Source: Escherichia phage T2
DNA length: 64,000 nucleotides
Sequence record: NC_054931.1
Reading direction: 5' to 3' (one strand)
Under the pieces are notes generated by a model. The model had not been told where the DNA came from. It did no database searches and saw nothing but the letters and a program-made list of their open reading frames with translations. A program made the position numbers and the translations under genes. Each line of letters opens with the position of its first letter. The first letter of the stretch is position 1. Of the stretch, positions 17,542-64,000 are shown piece after piece.

Positions 17542-17545
17542 CAAT

Positions 17546-17575
17546 GGGGACCTTTCGGTCCCCATATTTTTATTT
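17546..17575. terminator. bidirectional terminator between gene 54 and alt.-3
   Basis: GGGGACC-TTTC-GGTCCCC hairpin followed by ATATTTTTATTT. Confidence 0.65.
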
Positions 17576-17860
17576 ACGGAATGAAATGAAAGCAGAAACT
17601 GAAGCAACTAAACTGTCTTCAATATAAACTTCAATTTTTACCGGAGCTTCTGACTCAAATTTACCTGTTACTACACCCTGGAAAATGCTTTCAGTCTGTT
17701 CTGGCTTTGAAAAATTTTCAGAAGGAAAAATTCCGAACTTTTTATCTGTTCCAAAAATTTTAATAAATTCATCGTAAACCGCTTCGTTAAAAGCATTATC
17801 AGCAGGAATAACGCCTTCAACTACAAGTTCTTGACCTAAAAAGCGCAAAGAAGATTTCAT
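17570..17860 (-). CDS. hypothetical protein (alt.-3 position)
   Basis: 96-aa ORF downstream of the alt paralogs. Confidence 0.6.
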   Translation of the reverse strand: MKSSLRFLGQELVVEGVIPADNAFNEAVYDEFIKIFGTDKKFGIFPSENFSKPEQTESIFQGVVTGKFESEAPVKIEVYIEDSLVASVSAFISFRK

Positions 17861-17891
17861 TTTGTGTTCCTCATGTTATGTCAGTAAGATT

Positions 17892-17921
17892 ATTATAACA
17901 CAACATAAGGAACTTGTAAAC
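17892..17921 (-). promoter_or_regulatory. T4-type early promoter (GTTTAC, 18-nt spacer, TATAAT) upstream of alt.-3
   Basis: On - strand GTTTACAAGTTCCTTATGTTGTGTTATAAT; near-identical block upstream of alc. Confidence 0.55.
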
Positions 17922-19978
17922 TACATTTTGAACTTTTTAGACATTCCGTTGATGTTAACCAAAGAAGCTAATATTTGAGAAACTTCGTTTTCCTCTTCTT
18001 TTGATTCTTCTACAAGGAATTGATTAAATCCAGCCATTGGACGAACTTCACCAGTTTCCATTAAATGGTCTCCATCATATACTGATTCTTCTAATTGTTC
18101 AGAAGGAGGAACGATTGTACCTTCGATTAGATACTTGTTATAAGCAGTTTCTTTCATAAAGTACGTACTTACTTTATTAATCTTCAGTAAAATTCCACGC
18201 GGTAGAATAACTTCAGCTTCTGATGGAAATCCTGATAAATGACCTGGAACGATAACTTTGATTCGCTCAGCTCCTTTAATTACCATACCCACGCTAGTTT
18301 CAGCATCTTCATTAGCATATGTAGAATGACTACCCATATGCATCAAATCTTCTGCATCAACGGAACCTTCTCCTTCTCCAGAAAATACTGCACCGGAATC
18401 ATCTAGAGCCATATAGTTTTTACCATGCTCGCCAAAGATATTTGGTTTAAGTGATGTCGATACGAAGTTCTTGAAATAGAACATTTTGTTTTCAATGTTG
18501 TGACGCAAAGTTTTAAAGGTAACTTCTTGTCCGCGATAAAGCGTAGTTCCTGGAGGAAGAACTGAACCTTTAGCGAATGCAGAATCCAACGTCTCGATGT
18601 GCTTAATAGCACGTTCCATATATTCTTCACGGGTAGAATCTGGTTTACCCAAAAGGAACGAGTTCATTTCAACATATGAATCTGCACAATAATCTTCAAT
18701 TACATCAGACTCAGCCTGAGTCAGTCCTTTTGGAGTTACTTCAGTGCTTGCATATTCATATGCCTGGGCAGCAGATTCATTAATCAATTTATAAATGCCA
18801 TTCATGACAAATTGAATAATAACTGTCTTTTCATCTGGCGTAGCTTTAGAACCTTTAACCAAATCATTGATAATTTTCTTAATAACATCAAAGCTATTAG
18901 AAATATTAATATCAGCAAGATCACTTAAAATTTTATCAGTTTTATAATCAAAGAATTCTTTATTCTTTAAATATTCTTGAGAACCTTGATATGTTATATC
19001 GCTCTGTAACTTGATAGATGGATCACGTAAACGTGCATGGGCTAATGCAATATGATTTCGGAAGTTTTCTAGTTCATAATCGCTAGATTTAAAACGAGAA
19101 GCACTTCTCATACCACCGATAGCTCCTTTGCTGAAGTTTGAACCAATCTGAATAACGCCAGAGTTCATTGGTCCTTCTGCTTTATATACCGGAACTTTAG
19201 ATTCAAACTCTTGATATTTCTTGGCAGCGAAGCTATCACCCTGAAGTGAAGCATCGACAGTAGAATATTGAGCTTGTGCTGCTAATCGACGACTAATTTT
19301 AGTTTTCTGAATAACCGCTTGGTCAGTACGTTTATCATTTTCTAAAGCAATAGAAGCAGCAACAGCGACAGCTTTAGGAACAGCATCACCTGTTTTAACA
19401 TCTACATAAACATCACCGACCTTCGATTCAACTTTTGCGAATAACTCAGTTGAAATAGGAGGTACACCTGGAATGTCTTCTAAATTGGCATTTTTACGGT
19501 AAACCATAATATATGCATACTTTTTATCATAGTCCCAGATTTCCTTTAAAAGAACATATCGACCTGCTCCTTTAGTACGTACTAAACGGTCAGCAATAAC
19601 TTGCATTTGACGAGCTGCGCCATTTGTTTTACTTTTTAGTACGCGGAATAAGCATGCGTCGATTTTATACTGTTTCATTGTTTGAAGAGCAGTATCAAAA
19701 ACAGCATTAATGACGCCAATTGGATTTCCACCCAAGTTTCTAAGCTTAACCAGCGATAATTTCTCGTTGACACCTATCATTACGATATGCATCATTTTAT
19801 CGCCTGGCTTAACGTTTTTATTTGTATCACCACCAGAGGTGTATGTACAAAATCTAAATCCAGGAAGCACGCTTTCTTCGCCGGCTTGAATAGCAAAAAT
19901 TTGTGGTATTTTATGCTTAGGATTTAAGTTAACAACCGGCGCCGAAGCGCCGTCAAATAATTCTGTAATAAGTTCCAT
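17921..19978 (-). CDS. Alt-family ADP-ribosyltransferase paralog (full length)
   Basis: 685-aa ORF; N-terminal MELITELFD shared with alt; C-terminal R (LYRGQ), STS (FVSTSL) and ExE (SEAEVILPRG) ART motifs. Confidence 0.8.
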   Translation of the reverse strand: MELITELFDGASAPVVNLNPKHKIPQIFAIQAGEESVLPGFRFCTYTSGGDTNKNVKPGDKMMHIVMIGVNEKLSLVKLRNLGGNPIGVINAVFDTALQTMKQYKIDACLFRVLKSKTNGAARQMQVIADRLVRTKGAGRYVLLKEIWDYDKKYAYIMVYRKNANLEDIPGVPPISTELFAKVESKVGDVYVDVKTGDAVPKAVAVAASIALENDKRTDQAVIQKTKISRRLAAQAQYSTVDASLQGDSFAAKKYQEFESKVPVYKAEGPMNSGVIQIGSNFSKGAIGGMRSASRFKSSDYELENFRNHIALAHARLRDPSIKLQSDITYQGSQEYLKNKEFFDYKTDKILSDLADINISNSFDVIKKIINDLVKGSKATPDEKTVIIQFVMNGIYKLINESAAQAYEYASTEVTPKGLTQAESDVIEDYCADSYVEMNSFLLGKPDSTREEYMERAIKHIETLDSAFAKGSVLPPGTTLYRGQEVTFKTLRHNIENKMFYFKNFVSTSLKPNIFGEHGKNYMALDDSGAVFSGEGEGSVDAEDLMHMGSHSTYANEDAETSVGMVIKGAERIKVIVPGHLSGFPSEAEVILPRGILLKINKVSTYFMKETAYNKYLIEGTIVPPSEQLEESVYDGDHLMETGEVRPMAGFNQFLVEESKEEENEVSQILASLVNINGMSKKFKM

Positions 19979-19981
19979 GAT

Positions 19982-22078
19982 TTATCCTTGAACGAACTTG
20001 TAAGGCATGTTTGTAATATCTATGCAAGACGCAATAATTCCGAGAGATGATTCTACTTTCTGTTTAACATTTGATGAAACAAATGATGCAAAGTCAACTC
20101 TGTCTTCTATTTCAATATCACCTGTCATTGCAACTACTTCGCCGGTTTCCATTAAACGGTCTCCGTCATAGATTACCGATTCGGTGAGTTCTTCTGTGGT
20201 CATAACTTCAGCTTGAATGAGTTTTGTATTATTAGACGTGGTTCCGTCATTATTAGAAGCATCAGTTATTTTATTAACTTTGACCATCAATCCGCGCGGT
20301 AGAATAACTTCAGCTTCTGTTGCTATTCCGAGACTTCCTGGATATACAACATTAACTTTATGAGCTCCATCAATTGCCCATCCTATTTGAACTTTAACGT
20401 ATTCAGGATTTTCTTTATACGCTCTTATTTCGTTTGGATTAATAGTTATTCCTTCTTCATTTTTATCAACTGTTAATTCATTGCGAGCTTCTGGTTCTAA
20501 AAGACCAATACCAGCATGTGTAATTCCAAAACGTCCAAAAATGATAGGAGTTAAAGAAGTAGATACAAAATTTCTGAAATAGAACACTTTATTTTTAACT
20601 AGCGCTTCGTATATAGGAGCAGTCATACTTTGAGCACGATAAACTGTAATGCCTTCCGGTATGCGGTCACCATTTTCAAAAGCTGAATCTAAATTATTTA
20701 TAGCAGATTCAATTTCTTTTTCACTCATTACATCATATCGTTCTGGATTGTAACGACCTAAAAGAAGATTATTAATGTCTGTATATCCTGAACCACAATA
20801 CTCTCTAATACCGCGCTTTTGTGATGGTGTATATTTAGAACCATCACAAGCAATAGTAATATCAATCATTGGACCAGCACCAATTCCAGAAAAACTATAA
20901 ATCATTCGTTTGAGGAATTTAGTTTTTGCTGCATTCCAGGCATTTTTAGTTATTTCTCCCCAGACTTCATCTGGCTGCCCTTTACGAGTTTTATTATGTT
21001 TATCAAGCCAATTATCTTTATATTCTTCAAAGAATTGATTGACAGCTGCCGCGTATTTCTCTAAACATTTTATTGAAGTAGTTGGTTCATTTTTAATCGC
21101 GTTAAAAATTACATCTTTAATTTTTTCAGAAACTTCATCAACCTCACTTTTTGAAAAGAATTTATAGTCATAGTGAAGTTCATTCGCAGTTCCTTCGGCA
21201 ATAATTTTTGCTGCCTTTGTTTTAGAAGCTAATGAATTAATTCCAATTTTCATTTCTTCTGCTTCGGGAATTAAAGGAGCGGTAGCAGGCTTATTGAAAT
21301 TAGCTGCGGTAGATTCATACTTCTGGAATAATTCACTTTCAAATCTAGAAGATTCCAATGATTGACTTTGCGCAATTGCTCTACGGGAAATTTTAACTTT
21401 AACGATTACAGCTTGGTCAGTACGTTTATCATTTTCTTGTGCAATAGATGCTGCAATTGCCTCGTTTTTAGTTACTTGAGCTCCAGTATCTTTATTGATA
21501 TAAACATCACCGACCTTCGATTCAACTTTAGTAAAGAGCTCGGTACTAATTTCCGGAACTCCTGGAATGTCTTCTAGTGATACATTTTTGCGATGTATAA
21601 GAATATATGCATACTTTTTATCATAATCCCAGAGTTCCTTAAGAAGGACGTATCTGCCACCTGAACGACTACGGATAAGTCTATCAGCAATAACTTGAAT
21701 TTGTCGAGCTTGACCAGCAGTTTTAGACTTAAGAATACGAAGCATACAAGCATCAATTTTATACTGACGCATTGTTTGCATTGCAACAGTAAAAACTGAA
21801 TTGATATAATTAATTGGGCTTGGACCAAGACCTTTTAATTTAGCAATTGAACCTTTAGCAGTTAATGTAAAAGGAACAATATGCATCATTTTATCGCCCA
21901 TTTTTAAATCGCGATTAGTATCACCTCCAGATGTATAGGTACATAAACGAAAGCCTGGTTGTTCAATTGCATCATCAACATGAACTGAAAAAATTTGTGG
22001 TATTTTCTTCTTTGGATTTAAGTTTGTAATCGGAAGAGTAGTATCTTCGTCAAATAATTCTGTAATGAGTTCCATCAT
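19982..22078 (-). CDS. alt: Alt ADP-ribosyltransferase (internal head protein)
   Basis: 698-aa ORF (MMELITELFD..., second Met may be the start); VYRAQ, FVSTSL and ATEAEVILPRG ART motifs; adjacent to gene 30 as in T4. Confidence 0.85.
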   Translation of the reverse strand: MMELITELFDEDTTLPITNLNPKKKIPQIFSVHVDDAIEQPGFRLCTYTSGGDTNRDLKMGDKMMHIVPFTLTAKGSIAKLKGLGPSPINYINSVFTVAMQTMRQYKIDACMLRILKSKTAGQARQIQVIADRLIRSRSGGRYVLLKELWDYDKKYAYILIHRKNVSLEDIPGVPEISTELFTKVESKVGDVYINKDTGAQVTKNEAIAASIAQENDKRTDQAVIVKVKISRRAIAQSQSLESSRFESELFQKYESTAANFNKPATAPLIPEAEEMKIGINSLASKTKAAKIIAEGTANELHYDYKFFSKSEVDEVSEKIKDVIFNAIKNEPTTSIKCLEKYAAAVNQFFEEYKDNWLDKHNKTRKGQPDEVWGEITKNAWNAAKTKFLKRMIYSFSGIGAGPMIDITIACDGSKYTPSQKRGIREYCGSGYTDINNLLLGRYNPERYDVMSEKEIESAINNLDSAFENGDRIPEGITVYRAQSMTAPIYEALVKNKVFYFRNFVSTSLTPIIFGRFGITHAGIGLLEPEARNELTVDKNEEGITINPNEIRAYKENPEYVKVQIGWAIDGAHKVNVVYPGSLGIATEAEVILPRGLMVKVNKITDASNNDGTTSNNTKLIQAEVMTTEELTESVIYDGDRLMETGEVVAMTGDIEIEDRVDFASFVSSNVKQKVESSLGIIASCIDITNMPYKFVQG

Positions 22079-22098: not shown

Positions 22099-22106
22099 TA
22101 TTTATA
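22099..22106 (-). promoter_or_regulatory. late promoter TATAAATA upstream of alt
   Basis: TATAAATA on - strand 21 nt upstream of the alt ATG. Confidence 0.45.
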
Positions 22107-25877: not shown

Positions 25878-26243
25878 TTAAATATCAAATTCGTTAAGAA
25901 CTACATCAAAGATTGCTTCAAGATGCTCAGGTTTAGCTCTGTTACTCAGAATATGACGAATCCAAGTTTTAACCAAAAGCTTGCGATTAGCACCATTCCA
26001 GCAAGGATGAGTCCCTAAATCGCGTTGACGAAAATCATCATCCAGAGCGATTTTAAAGTTGGAACCTTCCATTGTGATTGAAACCGTGATGCCATTTTCA
26101 AATCGCATATAAACATAGTTAGGAGTCATATACTGTTCAATTTCGCATACTGATCCATTTTGATGTTTCCAAAGGCAGATAGTATCAATAGAACCTGCAA
26201 TACCATTAGAAACATATTTACGTTCAAAGTTGATGTAGTTCAT
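25878..26243 (-). CDS. hypothetical protein
   Basis: 121 codons from ATG 26243 with AAGGAG RBS. Confidence 0.55.
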   Translation of the reverse strand: MNYINFERKYVSNGIAGSIDTICLWKHQNGSVCEIEQYMTPNYVYMRFENGITVSITMEGSNFKIALDDDFRQRDLGTHPCWNGANRKLLVKTWIRHILSNRAKPEHLEAIFDVVLNEFDI

Positions 26244-26271
26244 TTTTATTCTCCTTTGTTTGTGTAAGATA

Positions 26272-26301
26272 ATACTATCACAAAGGAACCATACTGTAAA
26301 C
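26272..26301 (-). promoter_or_regulatory. T4-type early promoter
   Basis: GTTTAC, 18-nt spacer, TAGTAT on - strand upstream of the 26243 start. Confidence 0.45.
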
Positions 26302-26330
26302 AACTTTATGCAATCTTTGGAAAATAAAAA

Positions 26331-26350
26331 AGGACTCCCGAAGGAGTCCT
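26331..26350 (-). terminator. terminator hairpin AGGACTCC-CGAA-GGAGTCCT (stem-loop part of a PeSL-like cassette)
   Basis: 8-bp stem followed on - strand by a T-rich tract. Confidence 0.55.
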
Positions 26351-26354
26351 CAAC

Positions 26355-26531
26355 TTATGCTTTCTGCTTACCAAAACGAGAAGCATCATCTCGAAGAACC
26401 GCACGTGCTCGGCGCATGATCTTCTCAACAGTTTGATTGATACGAGAGTTCGACCCACGCTTGTAGCCAGCGCGTTTAGAATCACCAACTTTCTTTTCAA
26501 CTGCTTTCTTTGCTTTAGCTTGTTTTGCCAT
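26355..26531 (-). CDS. small basic hypothetical protein
   Basis: 58 codons from MAKQAKAKKAVEKK; highly Lys/Arg-rich. Confidence 0.5.
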   Translation of the reverse strand: MAKQAKAKKAVEKKVGDSKRAGYKRGSNSRINQTVEKIMRRARAVLRDDASRFGKQKA

Positions 26532-31445: not shown

Positions 31446-31795
31446 TTAGAAAGGTCCTGGATGTCTTCTGCGAACTTGTTGAAGGAGTTGTTGATTTGTT
31501 TTTCAACCAATCCTGGCTTATGAGCCACCACATCCGCCTTCTTTGCGTCTTTGCGCAGTTTTTCATTTTCACGCTCAATAGCAGAAATTGCCTCACGATT
31601 TTTAGTATTCATCGCATCAATATAATTATACTGAATTCGCAAATTATTTAATGCTAAAGCGTTTTCATTGGCCGTTTTTGTAATTTCTACAACAGACGTT
31701 TCTAATCTTTCAATTTTATTTTTTAAAATTAAAGAAGTTCCGCCTAATGCAATTACAATTAATAGCAAACCTGCTGTCGTATTACTTAATTGCAT
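31442..31795 (-). CDS. hypothetical membrane-anchored coiled-coil protein
   Basis: 117-aa ORF with N-terminal hydrophobic segment. Confidence 0.5.
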   Translation of the reverse strand: MQLSNTTAGLLLIVIALGGTSLILKNKIERLETSVVEITKTANENALALNNLRIQYNYIDAMNTKNREAISAIERENEKLRKDAKKADVVAHKPGLVEKQINNSFNKFAEDIQDLSK

Positions 31796-32292
31796 AAAGT
31801 TTTAATAACCTCTATAATATCGTCTTGAGAAAGACCGTTAATTAAAATATGATGTTCAGCTGGAGATTTAGAAATTTTAAAGCATGCCTCAACATCTTCT
31901 GCCATATCCGATGCACTACGATTTGGATTACTAATCCCAAGGCGGTGTTTTCCCGTCAAAGGATTAACGATGATGTAGCATTTACAACTATTGATATGAA
32001 CATTAGGCTGAGTCTGATTAATGAATACTTCGCACTCATACTTAGCGAGTTGATTTTCTAAAAAGACTTTCATCTCTTCAACCGCATCAGGAAGCATATC
32101 ACGGGCTTGCTCAAGACGACGATTTCGATATTCTTTAATGGTCGTTTTCCGCTTGACTTGCTTAGCTAAATCTTTCTTAAGATCAGTGATATATCCAACT
32201 CGACGATTTCCTTTGAATACAGAAATCCCATCTGTAGTATCACCGTATGCTTCAACGACCATTTCAGTAGTAATAAGCTGCAAATCCATCAT
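31786..32292 (-). CDS. alc: Alc transcription termination/host shutoff protein
   Basis: 168-aa ORF between pseT cluster and rnlA; size and position match T4 alc. Confidence 0.7.
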   Translation of the reverse strand: MMDLQLITTEMVVEAYGDTTDGISVFKGNRRVGYITDLKKDLAKQVKRKTTIKEYRNRRLEQARDMLPDAVEEMKVFLENQLAKYECEVFINQTQPNVHINSCKCYIIVNPLTGKHRLGISNPNRSASDMAEDVEACFKISKSPAEHHILINGLSQDDIIEVIKTLCN

Positions 32293-32320
32293 AAAGTCCT
32301 CATGTTATGTCAGTAAGATT

Positions 32321-32350
32321 ACTATAACACAACACGAAGGACTTGTAAAC
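32321..32350 (-). promoter_or_regulatory. T4-type early promoter upstream of alc
   Basis: GTTTAC, 18-nt spacer, TATAGT; promoter plus leader near-identical to the block at 17866-17921. Confidence 0.55.
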
Positions 32351-32353
32351 AGC

Positions 32354-33941
<1,588 letters not shown>

Positions 33942-40399: not shown

Positions 40400-40429
40400 A
40401 TAGTATCACACTACTACCCTTCTGTAAAC
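40400..40429 (-). promoter_or_regulatory. T4-type early promoter
   Basis: GTTTAC, 18-nt spacer, TACTAT, then conserved early-promoter downstream block. Confidence 0.45.
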
Positions 40430-41169: not shown

Positions 41170-41188
41170 GGGGACCCTAGAGGTCCCC
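41170..41188 (-). terminator. terminator after gene 32
   Basis: GGGGACC-CTAGA-GGTCCCC hairpin followed on - strand by TTTTTTATTT. Confidence 0.65.
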
Positions 41189-44484: not shown

Positions 44485-47400
44485 ATGGCCGAGATTAAAA
44501 GAAAGTTCAGAGCAGAAGATGGTCTGGACGCAGGTGGTGATAAAATAATCAACGTAGCTTTAGCTGATCGTGCCGTAGGAACTGACGGTGTTAACGTTGA
44601 TTACTTAATTCAAGAAAATACAGTTCAACAATATGATCCAACTCGTGGATATTTAAAAGATTTTGTAATCATTTATGATAACCGCTTTTGGGCTGCTATA
44701 AATGATATTCCAAAACCAGCAGGAGCTTTTAATAGCGGACGCTGGAGAGCATTACGTACCGATGCAAACTGGATTACGGTTTCATCCGGTTCATATCAAT
44801 TAAAATCCGGTGAAGCAATTTCGGTTAATACTGCAGCTGGAAATGACATCACGTTTACTTTACCATCTTCTCCAATTGATGGTGATACTATCGTTCTCCA
44901 AGATATTGGAGGAAAACCCGGAGTTAACCAAGTTTTAATTGTAGCTCCAGTGCAAAGTATTGTAAACTTTAGAGGTGAACAAGTACGTTCAGTACTAATG
45001 ACTCATCCAAAGTCACAGCTAGTTTTAATTTTTAGTAATCGTCTGTGGCAAATGTATGTTGCTGATTATAGTAGAGAAGCTGTAATTGTAACACCAGCGA
45101 ATACTTATCAAGCACAATCAAACGATTTTATCGTGCATAGATTTACTTCTGCCGCACCGATAAATATTAAACTTCCGAGATTTGCTAATCACGGAGATAT
45201 TATTAATTTCGTTGATTTAGATAAACTAAATCCACTTTATCATACAATTGTTACTACATACGATGAAACTACTTCAATACAAGAAGATGGAACTCATTCT
45301 ATTGAAGACCGTACATCAATCGACGGTTTCTTGATGTTTGATGATAATGAGAAATTGTGGAGATTGTTTGACGGGGACAGTAAAGCACGTTTACGTATCA
45401 TAACGACTAATTCAAACATTCTTCCAAATGAAGAAGTTATGGTATTTGGTGCGAATAACGGAACAACTCAAACAATTGAGCTTCAGCTTCCAACTAATAT
45501 TTCTGTTGGTGATACTGTTAAAATTTCCATGAATTACATGAGAAAAGGACAAACAGTTAAAATCAAAGCTGCTGATGAAGATAAAATTGCTTCTTCAGTT
45601 CAATTACTGCAATTCCCAAAACGCTCAGAATATCCGCCTGAAGCTGAATGGGTAACTGTCCAAGAATTAGTTTTTAACGGTGAAACTAATTATGTTCCAG
45701 TTTTGGAGCTTGCTTATATTGAAGATTCTGATGGAAAATACTGGGTTGTACAGCAAAACGTTCCAACCGTAGAAAGAGTAGATTCTTTAAATGATTCTAC
45801 TAGAGCAAGATTAGGCGTAATTGCTTTAGCTACACAAGCTCAAGCTAACGTCGATTTAGAAAATTCTCCACAAAAAGAATTAGCAATTACTCCAGAAACG
45901 TTAGCTAATCGCACTGCTACTGAAACTCGCAGAGGTATTGCAAGAATAGCAACTACTGCTCAAGTGAATCAGAACACCACATTCTCTTTTGCTGACGATA
46001 TTATCATCACTCCTAAAAAGCTGAATGAAAGAACTGCTACTGAAACTCGCAGAGGTGTTGCTGAAATTGCTACGCAGCAAGAAACTAATACAGGTACTGA
46101 TGATACTACAATCATCACTCCTAAAAAGCTTCAAGCCCGTCAAGGTTCTGAATCATTATCTGGTATTGTAACTTTTGTATCTACTGCAGGTGCTACTCCA
46201 GCTTCTAGCCGTGAATTAAATGGTACGAATGTTTATAATAAAAACACTAATAATTTAGTTGTTTCACCTAAAGCTTTGGATCAGTATAAAGCTACTCCAA
46301 CGCAGCAAGGTGCAGTAATTTTAGCAGTTGAAAGTGAAGTAATTGCTGGAAAAAGTCAGGAAGGATGGGCGAATGCTGTTGTAACGCCAGAAACGTTACA
46401 TAAAAAGACATCAACTGATGGAAGAATTGGTTTAATTGAAATTGCTACGCAAAGTGAAGTTAATACAGGAACTGATTATACTCGTGCAGTCACTCCTAAA
46501 ACTTTAAATGACCGTAGAGCAACTGAAAGTTTAAGTGGTATAGCTGAAATTGCTACACAAGTTGAATTCGACGCAGGCGTCGACGATACTCGTATCTCTA
46601 CACCATTAAAAATTAAAACCAGATTTAATAGTACTGATCGTACTTCTGTTGTTGCTCTATCTGGATTAATTGAATCAGGAACTCTCTGGGACCATTATAC
46701 CCTTAATATTCTTGAAGCAAATGAGACACAACGTGGTACACTTCGTGTAGCTACACAAGTTGAAGCTGCTGCAGGAAAATTAGATAATGTTTTAATAACT
46801 CCTAAAAAGCTTTTAGGTACTAAATCTACCGAATCGCAAGAGGGTGTTATTAAAGTTGCAACTCAGTCTGAAGCTGTGGCTGGAACGTCAGCAAATACTG
46901 CTATATCTCCAAAAAATTTAAAATGGATTGTGCAGAGTGAACCTTCTTGGAGAGCAACTACTACGGTAAGAGGGTTTGTTAAAACTTCGTCTGGTTCAAT
47001 TACATTCGTTGGTAATGATACAGTCGGTTCTACCCAAGATTTAGAACTTTATGAGAAAAATAATTATGCAGTATCACCATATGAATTAAACCGTGTATTA
47101 GCAAATTATTTGCCGTTAAAAGCAAAAGCTGTAGATAGTAATTTATTGGATGGTCTAGATTCATCCCAGTTCATTCGTAGGGATATTGCACAGACGGTTA
47201 ATGGTTCACTAACCTTAACCCAACAAACGAATCTGAGTGCCCCTCTTGTATCATCTAGTACTGCTACGTTTGGTGGTTCAGTTTCGGCAAATAGTACATT
47301 AACTATTTCTAATACTGGTACGACTTCTTCTCGATTTACATTTGAGAAAGGTCCTGCTTCTGGTAGTAATGCTGATTCTGCATTGTATGTTCGTGTATGG

Positions 47401-58468: not shown

Positions 58469-58509
58469 TTTCTAATCTCCGTAATTCTGTATCAGTAGTT
58501 GATAGTTGT

Positions 58510-58539
58510 ATAATACCACAGTATGCTTTGGTTGTAAAC
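58510..58539 (-). promoter_or_regulatory. T4-type early promoter upstream of motA (PeSL-like cassette)
   Basis: GTTTAC, 18-nt spacer, TATTAT, ACAACTATCAAC downstream block; A/T-rich upstream. Confidence 0.55.
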
Positions 58540-58571
58540 CGTTTTGTGAAAAAAATTTTAAAATAAAAAAA

Positions 58572-61516: not shown

Positions 61517-61630
61517 TCACATAAATCCAAAGTAAACGTTTAATACATCAATCATTAAAACGATTGGGAATATACTCAAAACTATTAGTATTATAACTAC
61601 ATTCCATATAGCTTTAACAATCTTTTTCAT
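61517..61630 (-). CDS. micro-ORF, predicted small membrane protein
   Basis: 37 codons MKKIVKAIWNVVIILIVLSIFPIVLMIDVL... with GGAGGAACAG RBS. Confidence 0.4.
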   Translation of the reverse strand: MKKIVKAIWNVVIILIVLSIFPIVLMIDVLNVYFGFM

Positions 61631-61658
61631 TTTCTGTTCCTCCGTAGTTGATAGAGTA

Positions 61659-61688
61659 ATAATACCACAGAGGAACAATCTTGTAAAC
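61659..61688 (-). promoter_or_regulatory. T4-type early promoter
   Basis: GTTTAC, 18-nt spacer, TATTAT on - strand. Confidence 0.5.
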
Positions 61689-62112: not shown

Positions 62113-62146
62113 TTTATTCTCCAAATCCGTATCAGTTGATAGTTGT

Positions 62147-62176
62147 ATATTACCACAGTCCTTGTGGTATGTAAAC
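62147..62176 (-). promoter_or_regulatory. T4-type early promoter
   Basis: GTTTAC, 18-nt spacer, TAATAT, ACAACTATCAAC downstream block. Confidence 0.5.
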
Positions 62177-62194
62177 CGTTTTGTGAAAAAATTT

Positions 62195-62752
62195 TTAAAT
62201 GGAAAGATACCATCCGTTGTAGTTGCTTTTTCTTACAACCTTACGAAGGTCTTCTCTATCACCGATGAATTTCGGAGTGTACTGGATGACACCTGGATGA
62301 ATTTCTTTAGTGTTGAATATAATTATACAGTCAGCGACTTGATGATTTAGAATGGGCCCTAGATTTATTCCAGAACCATATGGATACTCTCCGCTGCATC
62401 CGGTTGTTACCGAAATCCATCGTGAGTCAGTTTGATGTGTTTTGACTTCTACACGAAGCCCACAGTATTTTGGATGCGCCAATACATCCCATGCATATGT
62501 ATATGGGTCATTAACATCCTCTTGGCCTTTGTTAACATACCCGCTTAGCCAATCTGCTACAAAAAATTCTGCGTACACAGCGATACGACATCTTTCAATA
62601 ACTTCTGCTTTATCCTGGTTCGGGTTTTGTTTTAAAGAGTATCTTGCTGTATCAGCAATTTTGACCTTCATTTCACTAGTCAAGTCACTGTTCGATAGGG
62701 TAAATGTCGGAATCTGAAATAGTCTCTGTAAACCCGGATTCGTTTTCTGCAT
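62195..62752 (-). CDS. denB: endonuclease IV
   Basis: 185-aa ORF MQKTNPGLQRLFQIPTFTLSNSDL...; recognised as T4 DenB. Confidence 0.9.
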   Translation of the reverse strand: MQKTNPGLQRLFQIPTFTLSNSDLTSEMKVKIADTARYSLKQNPNQDKAEVIERCRIAVYAEFFVADWLSGYVNKGQEDVNDPYTYAWDVLAHPKYCGLRVEVKTHQTDSRWISVTTGCSGEYPYGSGINLGPILNHQVADCIIIFNTKEIHPGVIQYTPKFIGDREDLRKVVRKSNYNGWYLSI

Positions 62753-62815
62753 TGAACTTTCCTTTTACGTCGGAATCACTGATATTCATATAAATCATAA
62801 TTTCTCTTAAAACAA

Positions 62816-62831
62816 AAGGGCCGAAGCCCTT
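62816..62831. repeat. hairpin AAGGGC-CGAA-GCCCTT, copy 1
   Basis: 16-nt palindromic stem-loop identical to 63048-63063; T-rich flank on - strand. Confidence 0.6.
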
Positions 62832-62834
62832 ATT

Positions 62835-63029
62835 TTATTTGAATTGCGCAATTCTTTTCTCTAGACACTCAGCATAAGATTTCATTGAGATAAACTGCGA
62901 AAGTAGCAGTTCTTGCTCAACTGCACTAACCGTTAGAAACTTTGTGCTTTCTAAAAATTTACTCAGTGCATTAATTTTGAGCATTAATTGATCGTATTCT
63001 TCTTTTACTCGTGCTTGATAACCTAACAT
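62835..63029 (-). CDS. hypothetical protein (denB.1 position)
   Basis: 64-aa ORF with AAGGAAAA RBS, bracketed by two identical hairpins. Confidence 0.5.
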   Translation of the reverse strand: MLGYQARVKEEYDQLMLKINALSKFLESTKFLTVSAVEQELLLSQFISMKSYAECLEKRIAQFK

Positions 63030-63047
63030 AATTTTCCTTAATATGAT

Positions 63048-63063
63048 AAGGGCCGAAGCCCTT
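63048..63063. repeat. hairpin AAGGGC-CGAA-GCCCTT, copy 2
   Basis: Identical 16-mer overlapping the rIIB stop codon. Confidence 0.6.
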
Positions 63064-64000
63064 ATTTAAATTGTTCAGTAACGTCTTCAACTACTTCGTA
63101 TTGGCAGGTACGCATTTTAGCATCGTTGTAATCAATCGGAATTGATACTACATCACGCGGATGTACTTTAACTTTTACAACTCGACTGGTTGAACTGCCA
63201 AAGTGACGAATATAAGATTTAGAACACACATGCAGACCACGAGAACAAGTTTGTGTATCATCGTCATTCACACGAGTACGTGGCATTTTAACTACTTTAC
63301 CCGGACTGTTATCAAAGGTGTTTGAGTGACAGTCAAAGTAGTTGTCACGAACTACTTTCCAAGCATAGAAGTAACCATCTTCGGTGATTTCAATATCGTT
63401 TGCTACCAAGAAATCAAAGAGTCGAGATACCGCTTTTTGGCTTGGGTTTTCCAGCAGATTTTCCAAGAACGGAAAATAAAATTCAAAGTTTTCGCCTTTT
63501 TCCATCGAGTCAAGAATACGATCAACCAAACCAGACCGCAATTCAATATTTTGATAGAACAAGCTTCCACCTTCAATTCGAACATCGCCGGAAATATATT
63601 TTTCAACAGCGCGACGAACATTAATTTTTTGCGCAGCTTCTTCCAGCTTATCCGCTACAAGCAGATTAAGAATTTCCTGAAAGTTTGAATGAGTATTAGG
63701 AGTTGCGTTATAAGTTACACCGTCAACAGTAATTGAAATGAATTTTTTAGATGCATTCCAAATAATGTCAGATTTAGCAACTGGAGCAATAACTGCATCG
63801 CTATTAACTTTAACTGTAATATCACCGCTAATAGTAACTTTAGGGCGTTTAGCTTCTTCAGCATTTTTCAAAACACGACGGATTGTGTCAACCGATACAC
63901 CTTGCCAATCAGCCAATTCCTGTTGGGTGTAATTACCACTTGAATACAGTTTAACAATTTCAGCTTGTTCGTTTTTGGTCAGGCATTTAATATTGTACAT
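63062..64000 (-). CDS. rIIB: rIIB protein
   Basis: 312-aa ORF MYNIKCLTKNEQAEIVKLYSSGNYTQQELADWQG...; start codon is the last three bases of the window. Confidence 0.95.
   Translation of the reverse strand: MYNIKCLTKNEQAEIVKLYSSGNYTQQELADWQGVSVDTIRRVLKNAEEAKRPKVTISGDITVKVNSDAVIAPVAKSDIIWNASKKFISITVDGVTYNATPNTHSNFQEILNLLVADKLEEAAQKINVRRAVEKYISGDVRIEGGSLFYQNIELRSGLVDRILDSMEKGENFEFYFPFLENLLENPSQKAVSRLFDFLVANDIEITEDGYFYAWKVVRDNYFDCHSNTFDNSPGKVVKMPRTRVNDDDTQTCSRGLHVCSKSYIRHFGSSTSRVVKVKVHPRDVVSIPIDYNDAKMRTCQYEVVEDVTEQFK

Follow-up and report, generated by a model that had tools for sequence, protein, structure and literature searches.

Paired early promoter cassettes upstream of alt.-3 and alc in Escherichia phage T2 may double as transcript-specific translational gates

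The window considered here is a stretch of 64,000 nucleotides from Escherichia phage T2 (NC_054931.1), in which two minus-strand genes, alt.-3 and alc, are each preceded by a near-identical promoter cassette. The cassettes occupy the full 58-61 nt gap between each gene and the same-strand gene that lies upstream of it. The 2 kb around the first cassette, copy A, match several T2 records at 100%, and the genes at both sites were identified from the annotated T2, SV76 and T4 records, in agreement with the placement of the two blocks in the initial annotation of this DNA. The features of the two loci are as follows.

17861-17921, minus strand: copy A cassette, the whole gap from the stop codon of the Alt-like gene to the alt.-3 ATG
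17915-17920, minus strand: copy A -35 element TTTACA, with GTTTAC at 17916-17921
17892-17897, minus strand: copy A -10 element TATAAT with a TG extended -10, from a consensus scan
17866-17913, minus strand: copy A predicted hairpin, -24.1 kcal/mol, z -5.6 to -6.3, with the Shine-Dalgarno (SD) sequence GAGGA at 17868-17872
17570-17860, minus strand: alt.-3, 96 aa, the gene served by copy A
17921-19978, minus strand: Alt-like ADP-ribosyltransferase paralogue, 685 aa, directly upstream of copy A and a putative source of read-through RNA
22099-22106, minus strand: T4-type late promoter motif TATAAATA, upstream of alt
17544-17565, both strands: bidirectional terminator-like hairpin just 3' of alt.-3, an annotated terminator in SV76
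32293-32350, minus strand: copy B cassette, filling the gap between rnlA and the alc ATG, from 3 nt past the rnlA stop codon (32354-32356)
32344-32349, minus strand: copy B -35 element TTTACA, from a consensus scan
32321-32326, minus strand: copy B -10 element TATAGT with TG, from a consensus scan
32294-32344, minus strand: copy B predicted hairpin, -24.4 to -27.3 kcal/mol, z -6.0 to -6.4, with the SD GAGGA at 32297-32301
31786-32292, minus strand: alc, inhibitor of host transcription, the gene served by copy B
32354-33478, minus strand: rnlA (RNA ligase 1), directly upstream of copy B; read-through RNA initiated at the early promoters 40429 and 41139 would pass through it

The fit between cassette and gap is so close at copy A that the G of the TAG stop codon of the Alt-like gene is also the G of GTTTAC. 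In T2 this second Alt-like ADP-ribosyltransferase paralogue is intact (17921-19978 versus 19982-22078), whereas T4 has only the alt.-1/alt.-2 remnants, and several direct repeats about 2.1 kb apart between the two minus-strand genes reflect the Alt paralogy. The terminator-like hairpin at 17544-17565 sits between the convergent genes 54 and alt.-3, and is likely to be the end of transcripts that cross copy A. In T4, mutants of Alt.-3 with a C-terminal extension escape the CmdTAC defence by blocking the degradation of CmdA (Nature 2024, PMC11618068), and the gene behind copy A is therefore linked to anti-defence.

The 56-nt sequence described in the initial annotation is found exactly at 17866-17921 (chance expectation 0), and its recurrence with a few differences at 32297-32350 is borne out when the window is compared with itself, since 17868-17921 and 32297-32350 are recovered as a 54-nt direct repeat with 91% identity and a spacing of 14,429 nt. 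The length of the block is 54-56 nt. A 34-nt core of copy A is found again at 32297-32330 with a single mismatch, where the expectation in shuffled sequence is 0. When the copies are aligned without gaps and anchored at the -35 element, 49 of 56 positions are identical. The best of the other early-type promoter pairs in the window reaches 39/56 and the median is 21 (253 pairs), so that the suspicion that the identity might be no better than that of other early promoters does not hold. Among the non-coding repeats of 50 nt or more in the window, none is as similar as the alt.-3/alc pair, and the other early-promoter families share 61-85%. Both edges of the repeat are sharp, as identity in the flanks is at the random level (20/60 upstream and 16/65 downstream). 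The two copies share their spacer and leader far beyond the promoter consensus.

Other repeats are also found in the window. Two early promoters at 58497-58562 and 62134-62199 are 85% identical over 66 nt; they share the UP-like tract, the -35 and -10 elements and the initial transcribed ACAACTATCAACT, while their spacers differ, which is the opposite of the pattern in the alt.-3/alc pair. Two GGGCCGAAGCCC hairpins with a T-rich tail are located 232 nt apart at 62801-62841 and 63033-63073, and resemble repeated terminator-like elements. The region 45886-46811 harbors several imperfect coding repeat families of about 35-68 nt with a spacing of 108-120 nt, which suggests a repetitive structural protein.

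On the minus strand, both copies consist of GTTTAC, 18 nt and then TATAAT or TATAGT, which is equivalent to TTTACA, a 17-nt spacer and the -10 element. Copy A matches the sigma-70 consensus TTGACA-17-TATAAT at 11/12 positions and copy B at 10/12, these being the best matches in their regions, and both copies have a TG extended -10 and are completed by GAGGA and then ATG. The early promoter, leader and GAGGA ribosome-binding site that had been proposed for each copy are confirmed at the level of these matches. Both copies have the -35 sequence GTTTAC(A/T), the 17-bp spacer, the TATAAT-like -10 and the TGn that define a T4-type early promoter. They resemble the canonical T4 early promoters (Hinton 2010, PMC2988021) in the -35, TGn and -10 elements of the 'uber' promoter and in having early genes downstream, but differ from them in the likeness of their spacers and leaders, which extends well past the consensus. 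Moreover, copy B is without the A/T-rich UP-like tract upstream of the -35 element; the sequence at this position is AAAAAGTTCAAAATG in copy A and GGAAGGATACTAAGCT, which is not A/T-rich, in copy B. Judged by spacing, transcription is predicted to start at an A at about 17885 in copy A and at an A at about 32314 in copy B. The predicted starts of alc (32314) and alt.-3 (17885) correspond to minus-strand positions 136300 and 123057 of T4 (NC_000866.4), and a public T4 dRNA-seq dataset exists (GSE255091).

In T4 omics data, alt.-3 and alc are both classed as early RNA and early protein, and the Alt, RnlA and DenA proteins are classed as late. The co-regulation that had been read from the shared block says little about this particular pair, since T-even early promoters all fire at the same time.

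A feature that is absent from the initial annotation is that each cassette is an imperfect palindrome. In the predicted hairpin, which has a stem of 17-22 bp, the promoter spacer forms the 5' arm and the leader, including the SD GAGGA, forms the 3' arm, with the -10 element and the predicted start in the upper stem and loop. The 71-nt RNA regions fold at -24.1 (copy A) and -27.3 (copy B) kcal/mol, with z-scores of -5.6 and -6.0, and none of 200 shuffles is as stable; for the region from -35 to ATG the z-scores are -6.3 and -6.4. The computed cost of opening the SD of alt.-3 is 14.3 kcal/mol in read-through RNA against 1.9 in promoter-proximal RNA. For alc the corresponding costs are 6.3 and 1.7 kcal/mol, and the comparison of the real with shuffled spacers at this copy gives p = 0.08 only. 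Three G.U pairs in the Tequatrovirus stem give the sense RNA an advantage of 9-10 kcal/mol in stability over the antisense strand, and this modelled asymmetry favours a role at the RNA level, on the mRNA strand. A terminator scan finds neither a U-tract nor a terminator-like site in the two cassettes, the tails after the stems being ACACAAAAUG and CUUUAUGAUG, and the cassettes are therefore not intrinsic-terminator-like. The Rfam covariance models give no match at either site at E <= 1. Elsewhere in the window, the minus strand of 26316-26399 has a sub-threshold Rfam match to the Rhizobiales sRNA Atu_C8 (31 bits versus a gathering threshold of 50, E 0.006), which is probably spurious and overlaps a terminator hairpin.

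Hairpins that sequester a ribosome-binding site and contain an internal promoter are known from the T4 genes e, soc, 49 and I-TevI (Uzan and Miller 2010, PMC3014915). In some respects the T2 cassettes mirror these elements. RNA that comes from promoters further upstream has its SD and/or AUG base-paired, which is a prediction for T2, and the shorter RNA of the inner promoter lacks the 5' arm and is translatable, which in T2 would follow from the predicted start. However, the inner promoter of the T4 genes is late, so that translation is delayed to late infection, whereas that of the T2 cassettes is of the early sigma-70 type and would allow early translation only; a motif scan finds no TATAAATA late (gp55) promoter motif in either cassette. 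Given this early type of inner promoter, the cassettes would act like the e/soc/49/I-TevI class but are not members of it as described. By analogy, an early promoter inside a hairpin that sequesters the ribosome-binding site can be seen as the mirror image of the T4 lysozyme/soc mechanism. The masking of an SD by an early promoter is absent from the T4 reviews consulted and from the papers on the promoter-early stem-loops (PeSLs) of T4-type phages (Arbiol et al. 2010, PMC2839356; Comeau et al. 2014, PMC4122927), and a full-text search finds the cassette sequence in no paper, the older T4 literature being outside that scope.

We consider it on balance probable that each block is an early promoter and leader cassette, PeSL-like in its organization, that doubles as a transcript-specific translational gate. 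This is the most likely reading, and is backed by structure prediction and covariation, the block to translation itself being a predicted one. The repeat, the match to the promoter consensus, the predicted hairpin, the covariation at the alc site, the polymorphisms common to both sites and the lack of a terminator come directly from the sequence analysis, and the start sites, the read-through, the translational block and the direction of copying are inferred. Host RNA polymerase would start about 7 nt past the -10 element and generate a short-leader alt.-3 or alc mRNA directly after infection. This RNA would begin within the loop, without the 5' arm, and its SD would be free. As the 17-18 nt spacer is complementary to the leader and SD, and the predicted start is placed in the loop, only RNA derived from upstream would contain both arms; such RNA would fold into a hairpin of about 20 bp in which the SD is buried. 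It would come from the late alt promoter via the alt genes at copy A, and from early and middle promoters via rnlA at copy B. In this manner, alt.-3 and alc would be translated only while their own early promoter is active. The T4 timing classes, as class-level data, fit independent early initiation at each cassette and no late translation.

Read-through into both copies is plausible from the arrangement of the sequence. On the minus strand, no terminator-like site is found between the late motif at 22106 and copy A, and the next one lies at 17565-17544, past alt.-3. Between the early-type promoters at 40429 and 41139 and copy B there are only weak terminator matches at chance level.

The alc site of other Tevenvirinae lineages likewise has a gap of some 60 nt that is filled by an early-type promoter. 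The spacer pairs with the SD in at least five diverged lineages although the stem sequences differ, with arms such as CCTCTCATTTTT/AAAATGAGAGG, TCTCCTCAT/ATGAGGAGA and TCCTCATTTCGTT/AACGAAATGAGGA, and also AACCTCTCATTTTT/GAAAATGAGAGGTT, CCTCTCGTTTTTG/CAAAAACGAGAGG and ATCCCATTTTGTTGTGT/ACACTAACAAAATGGGGAT. When the spacer of each of 11 alc lineages was paired with the leader of every lineage, the cognate duplexes had a mean of -13.4 kcal/mol versus -6.9 for the non-cognate ones (permutation p about 1e-5), and the cognate duplex reached -15 kcal/mol or lower in 6 of the 11. Compensatory changes include an A-U to G-C replacement between two of these lineages (L032 versus L033) and, within T2, GTTCC...GGAAC in copy A versus GTCC...GGAC in copy B. 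It is the hairpin structure that is conserved at the alc site across genera, as judged from these sequences, and not the sequence itself. The permutation test was used in place of an alignment-based consensus structure; RNAalifold finds no consensus structure on a MAFFT alignment of 12 hairpin-bearing cassettes, because the register of the helix differs between lineages. The hairpin is absent in three of the 11 alc lineages, namely the RB69-like phages and two others (L036, L048 and L034), and at a further three loci (L031, L047 and L037) the stem stops immediately before the SD is reached; masking of the SD is thus not universal. The other genera were reached by alignment-based searches; an exact-pattern scan of IMG/VR returned nine stretches, all from close relatives, and a search with a single-protein locus likewise gave close relatives only.

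Two further observations were made in these genera. In Gaprivervirus (L021 80-400, L029, L030 and L049) an extra ORF, annotated with a PRC domain in L021, is found between rnlA and alc, and is preceded by its own terminator-like hairpin, promoter-like region and SD-sequestering hairpin, which suggests a cassette-flanked insertion between the two genes. A small spacer-internal hairpin with an AAGGA-type loop, for example CCACAAGGATGTGG, GCACAAGGAAGTGC and ACACCAAGGAAGGTGT, is present in L020, L022 and L055-L064 and in the promoter at 62176 of the window, and hairpins of this type recur in many early promoters of other genera.

The cassette itself is found by blastn at 999 places in 502 records, two per genome and almost all from Tequatrovirus, and about 500 Tequatrovirus genomes are thus represented with two copies each. 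One 54-nt match is to the alt.-3 copy of a record named 'Staphylococcus phage SAJK-IND' (L073, MG010123.1, UNVERIFIED_ORG); a Staphylococcus phage origin was rejected, as the record is a mislabelled partial Tequatrovirus genome. Outside Tequatrovirus, the alt.-3 site has a different promoter, with a small spacer-internal hairpin only and a free SD, and among the genera compared an SD hairpin at this site is found only in Tequatrovirus. The site nevertheless retains the common ends GTTTACAAG and ACATGAGGA in the other genera. The spacer and loop of the Tequatrovirus cassette (GTTGTGTTA, CTTAC and ACTAAC) are like those of the alc-site cassettes from other genera, and this likeness points to the probable copying of an alc-type cassette into the alt.-3 site within the Tequatrovirus lineage.

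The subsequent history of the two copies can be read from their variants. Between GTTTAC and GAGGA, the T4 copies differ by one loop base, those of RB32 and two IMG/VR genomes are identical, several IMG/VR genomes in all have identical or nearly identical copies, and the T2 pair is among the most diverged in Tequatrovirus. The variants TATAATAATC/TATAGTAGTC and TTCCTTAT/TCCCTCGT/TCCCTCAT are found at either locus, depending on the genome, while the 3' boundary is locus-specific, with GAGGAACACAAAATG at alt.-3 and GAGGACTTTATG at alc. On the sequence comparison, polymorphisms common to both sites are the signature of patchy gene conversion, and hence of concerted evolution 14 kb apart. The patches of exchange would be bounded by the common ends noted above, and conversion would have been ongoing since the copying; we propose that the T2 copies are alike because of this copying and conversion. 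The shared block had also been seen as a substrate for recombinational shuffling of modules. Exchange between the sites is supported by the shared polymorphisms, but shuffling is not, since the Tequatrovirus genomes compared show neither a deletion nor a swap of modules between the two copies, and the interval between these copies in T4 includes genes 30 (DNA ligase) and 31. A related observation comes from the Mosigvirus vB_EcoM_G53 (L072 381-444; MK327943.1, about 165469-165532), in which the 3' half of a cassette, TATAGTAGTCCTACTGAAACATGAGGAACACAAAATG, matches the Tequatrovirus alt.-3-type leader. This cassette is located upstream of an unrelated 66-aa ORF near ndd, and suggests transfer between loci or genera.

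Repeated promoter cassettes have been described earlier at the T-even internal-protein locus (Repoila et al. 1994, cited in PMC4122927). Both T2 cassettes have the PeSL layout of stop codon, sigma-70 early promoter, stem-loop, SD and ATG, and like PeSLs, which are repeated in the genome and proposed as recombination sites, they occur twice in each of about 500 Tequatrovirus records. They differ in that the stem spans the spacer, -10 element and leader, whereas in the PST/T4 pair the stem-loop lies just upstream of the promoter. The stem-loops of PeSLs are read by their authors as terminators or attenuators, whereas here the 3' arm is the SD and terminator features are lacking. There are also only two copies, 14.4 kb apart, and gene conversion is seen rather than cassette excision. 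With respect to the hyperplastic regions that are a trait of PeSLs, the alt.-3 site adjoins the variable alt paralogue region, and no indel is found between the copies. In two other places the window has the layout described for PST/T4-type PeSLs, with strong GC-rich, T-run terminators on the minus strand directly upstream of early promoters (26330-26351 upstream of 26301, and 41170-41188 upstream of 41139).

The design is not confined to alt.-3 and alc. A census of the full T2 genome (public record and window) gave 33 early-type promoter candidates directly upstream of early-strand ORFs. About 10 of the 33 carry a read-through-specific SD penalty of at least 4.6 kcal/mol, and in eight of these the real spacer beats shuffled spacers (p <= 0.03). 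On this modelling, the hairpin design is common to about a quarter to a third of the early-type promoters of T2, and the alt.-3/alc cassette is therefore one instance of it. Two further examples lie in the window.

61628-61688, minus strand: early promoter cassette of unrelated sequence, with a spacer-to-SD hairpin of -20.5 kcal/mol
26241-26301, minus strand: early promoter cassette with a weaker spacer-to-SD hairpin of -12.1 kcal/mol

The former belongs to a second cassette family with three T2 copies (AP018813.1 at about 24976 and about 50291, L074/L075, and window position 61688). This family has its own sequence, GTTCCTCTGTGG...CTACGGAGGAAC, with near-identical cassettes GTTTACAAGAnnGTTCCTCTGTGGTAnTAT...CTACGGAGGAACAnAAAATG, and each copy pairs its spacer with the SD. 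As a tentative generalization, for which the odds seem to us rather against than in favour, a sizeable fraction of T-even immediate-early promoters (about a quarter to a third) may be anti-Shine-Dalgarno hairpins, in which the spacer of the promoter would mask the ribosome-binding site in every RNA begun elsewhere. They would provide a general, protein-free means of switching off the translation of immediate-early genes after the shut-down of the early promoters, despite continued read-through, with cassettes that spread by gene conversion.

The main rival to a translational gate, though an unlikely one, is that the stem-loop acts on the upstream transcript, either by attenuation or termination or as a protective 3' end after processing, with the pairing of the SD a by-product of the 60-nt gap. 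The PeSL papers define the same layout, one RB49 PeSL stem-loop lowered lacZ expression like a strong terminator, and the stems of L031, L047, L037, the T2 promoter at 40429 and the Mosigvirus G53 cassette span the -10 element but stop before the SD. Yet no lineage has a U-tract after the stem, the terminator scan finds no site in either cassette, and the 3' arm tracks the SD specifically in most hairpin-bearing lineages. Moreover, the true terminators of the window are short GC-rich stems with T-runs that lie upstream of the promoter (26351-26330 and 41188-41170). The pair might alternatively be a recent gene-conversion patch between two early promoters, with a palindrome that has no function of its own. 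The identity or near-identity of A and B in many genomes and the variants common to both sites are in keeping with such a patch, and RB69-like phages manage without a hairpin. We regard this as improbable, as several genera retain an alc-site hairpin although its sequence differs between them, with changes that compensate each other (p about 1e-5), the z-scores are near -6, and the same design is found in unrelated T2 promoters whose real spacers beat shuffled ones.

Three further alternatives have less to commend them. In translational coupling, a ribosome that stops at the upstream stop codon would melt the base of the stem and free the SD, so that translation of the downstream gene from polycistronic RNA would depend on that of the upstream gene; both the mechanism and this prediction appear distinctly improbable to us. 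GTTTAC does follow the upstream stop codon at a distance of 0-3 nt, and other genera often have TAGTTTAC at the alc site, but the stem begins 7-9 nt past the stop codon with the partner bases of the SD deeper inside it, and a ribosome footprint would presumably open at most the outer 1-3 pairs. The T4 proteins also show the opposite of coupling, with Alt and RnlA late and Alt.-3 and Alc early. Action at the DNA level, as an operator for a dimeric regulator or as a cruciform that modulates promoter activity or recombination, has very little likelihood. It would agree with a symmetry that is centred on the -10 and start region, and with several palindromes outside Tequatrovirus that are fully Watson-Crick and fold equally well in sense and antisense. 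However, a protein-binding site should be conserved, whereas the arm sequences differ between lineages; in addition, the three G.U pairs of Tequatrovirus stabilise the sense RNA only, and the 3' arm has to serve as the SD. A stem of about 20 bp could also be a processing site for the double-strand RNase RNase III, separating the cistrons of long transcripts. The stem length of 17-22 bp would suit the enzyme, but the stems carry bulges and G.U pairs and in several lineages are only 9-13 bp long, and we give this proposal scarcely any weight.

T4-type phages are a textbook system for temporal gene control, in which the end of immediate-early protein synthesis is usually ascribed to promoter shut-off and RegB cleavage. 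If the cassettes do act as translational gates, a switch that turns off the translation of read-through RNA is written into the promoter sequence itself. This would explain the opposite timing of proteins from adjacent genes on one transcript, with Alt late and Alt.-3 early, and RnlA late and Alc early. PeSL-type stem-loops would also gain a further possible role in addition to termination. There would be consequences for engineering and annotation too, since the translation of the downstream gene on long transcripts would change if such a promoter were moved or deleted. The pair further documents the concerted evolution of regulatory cassettes that are located 14 kb apart.
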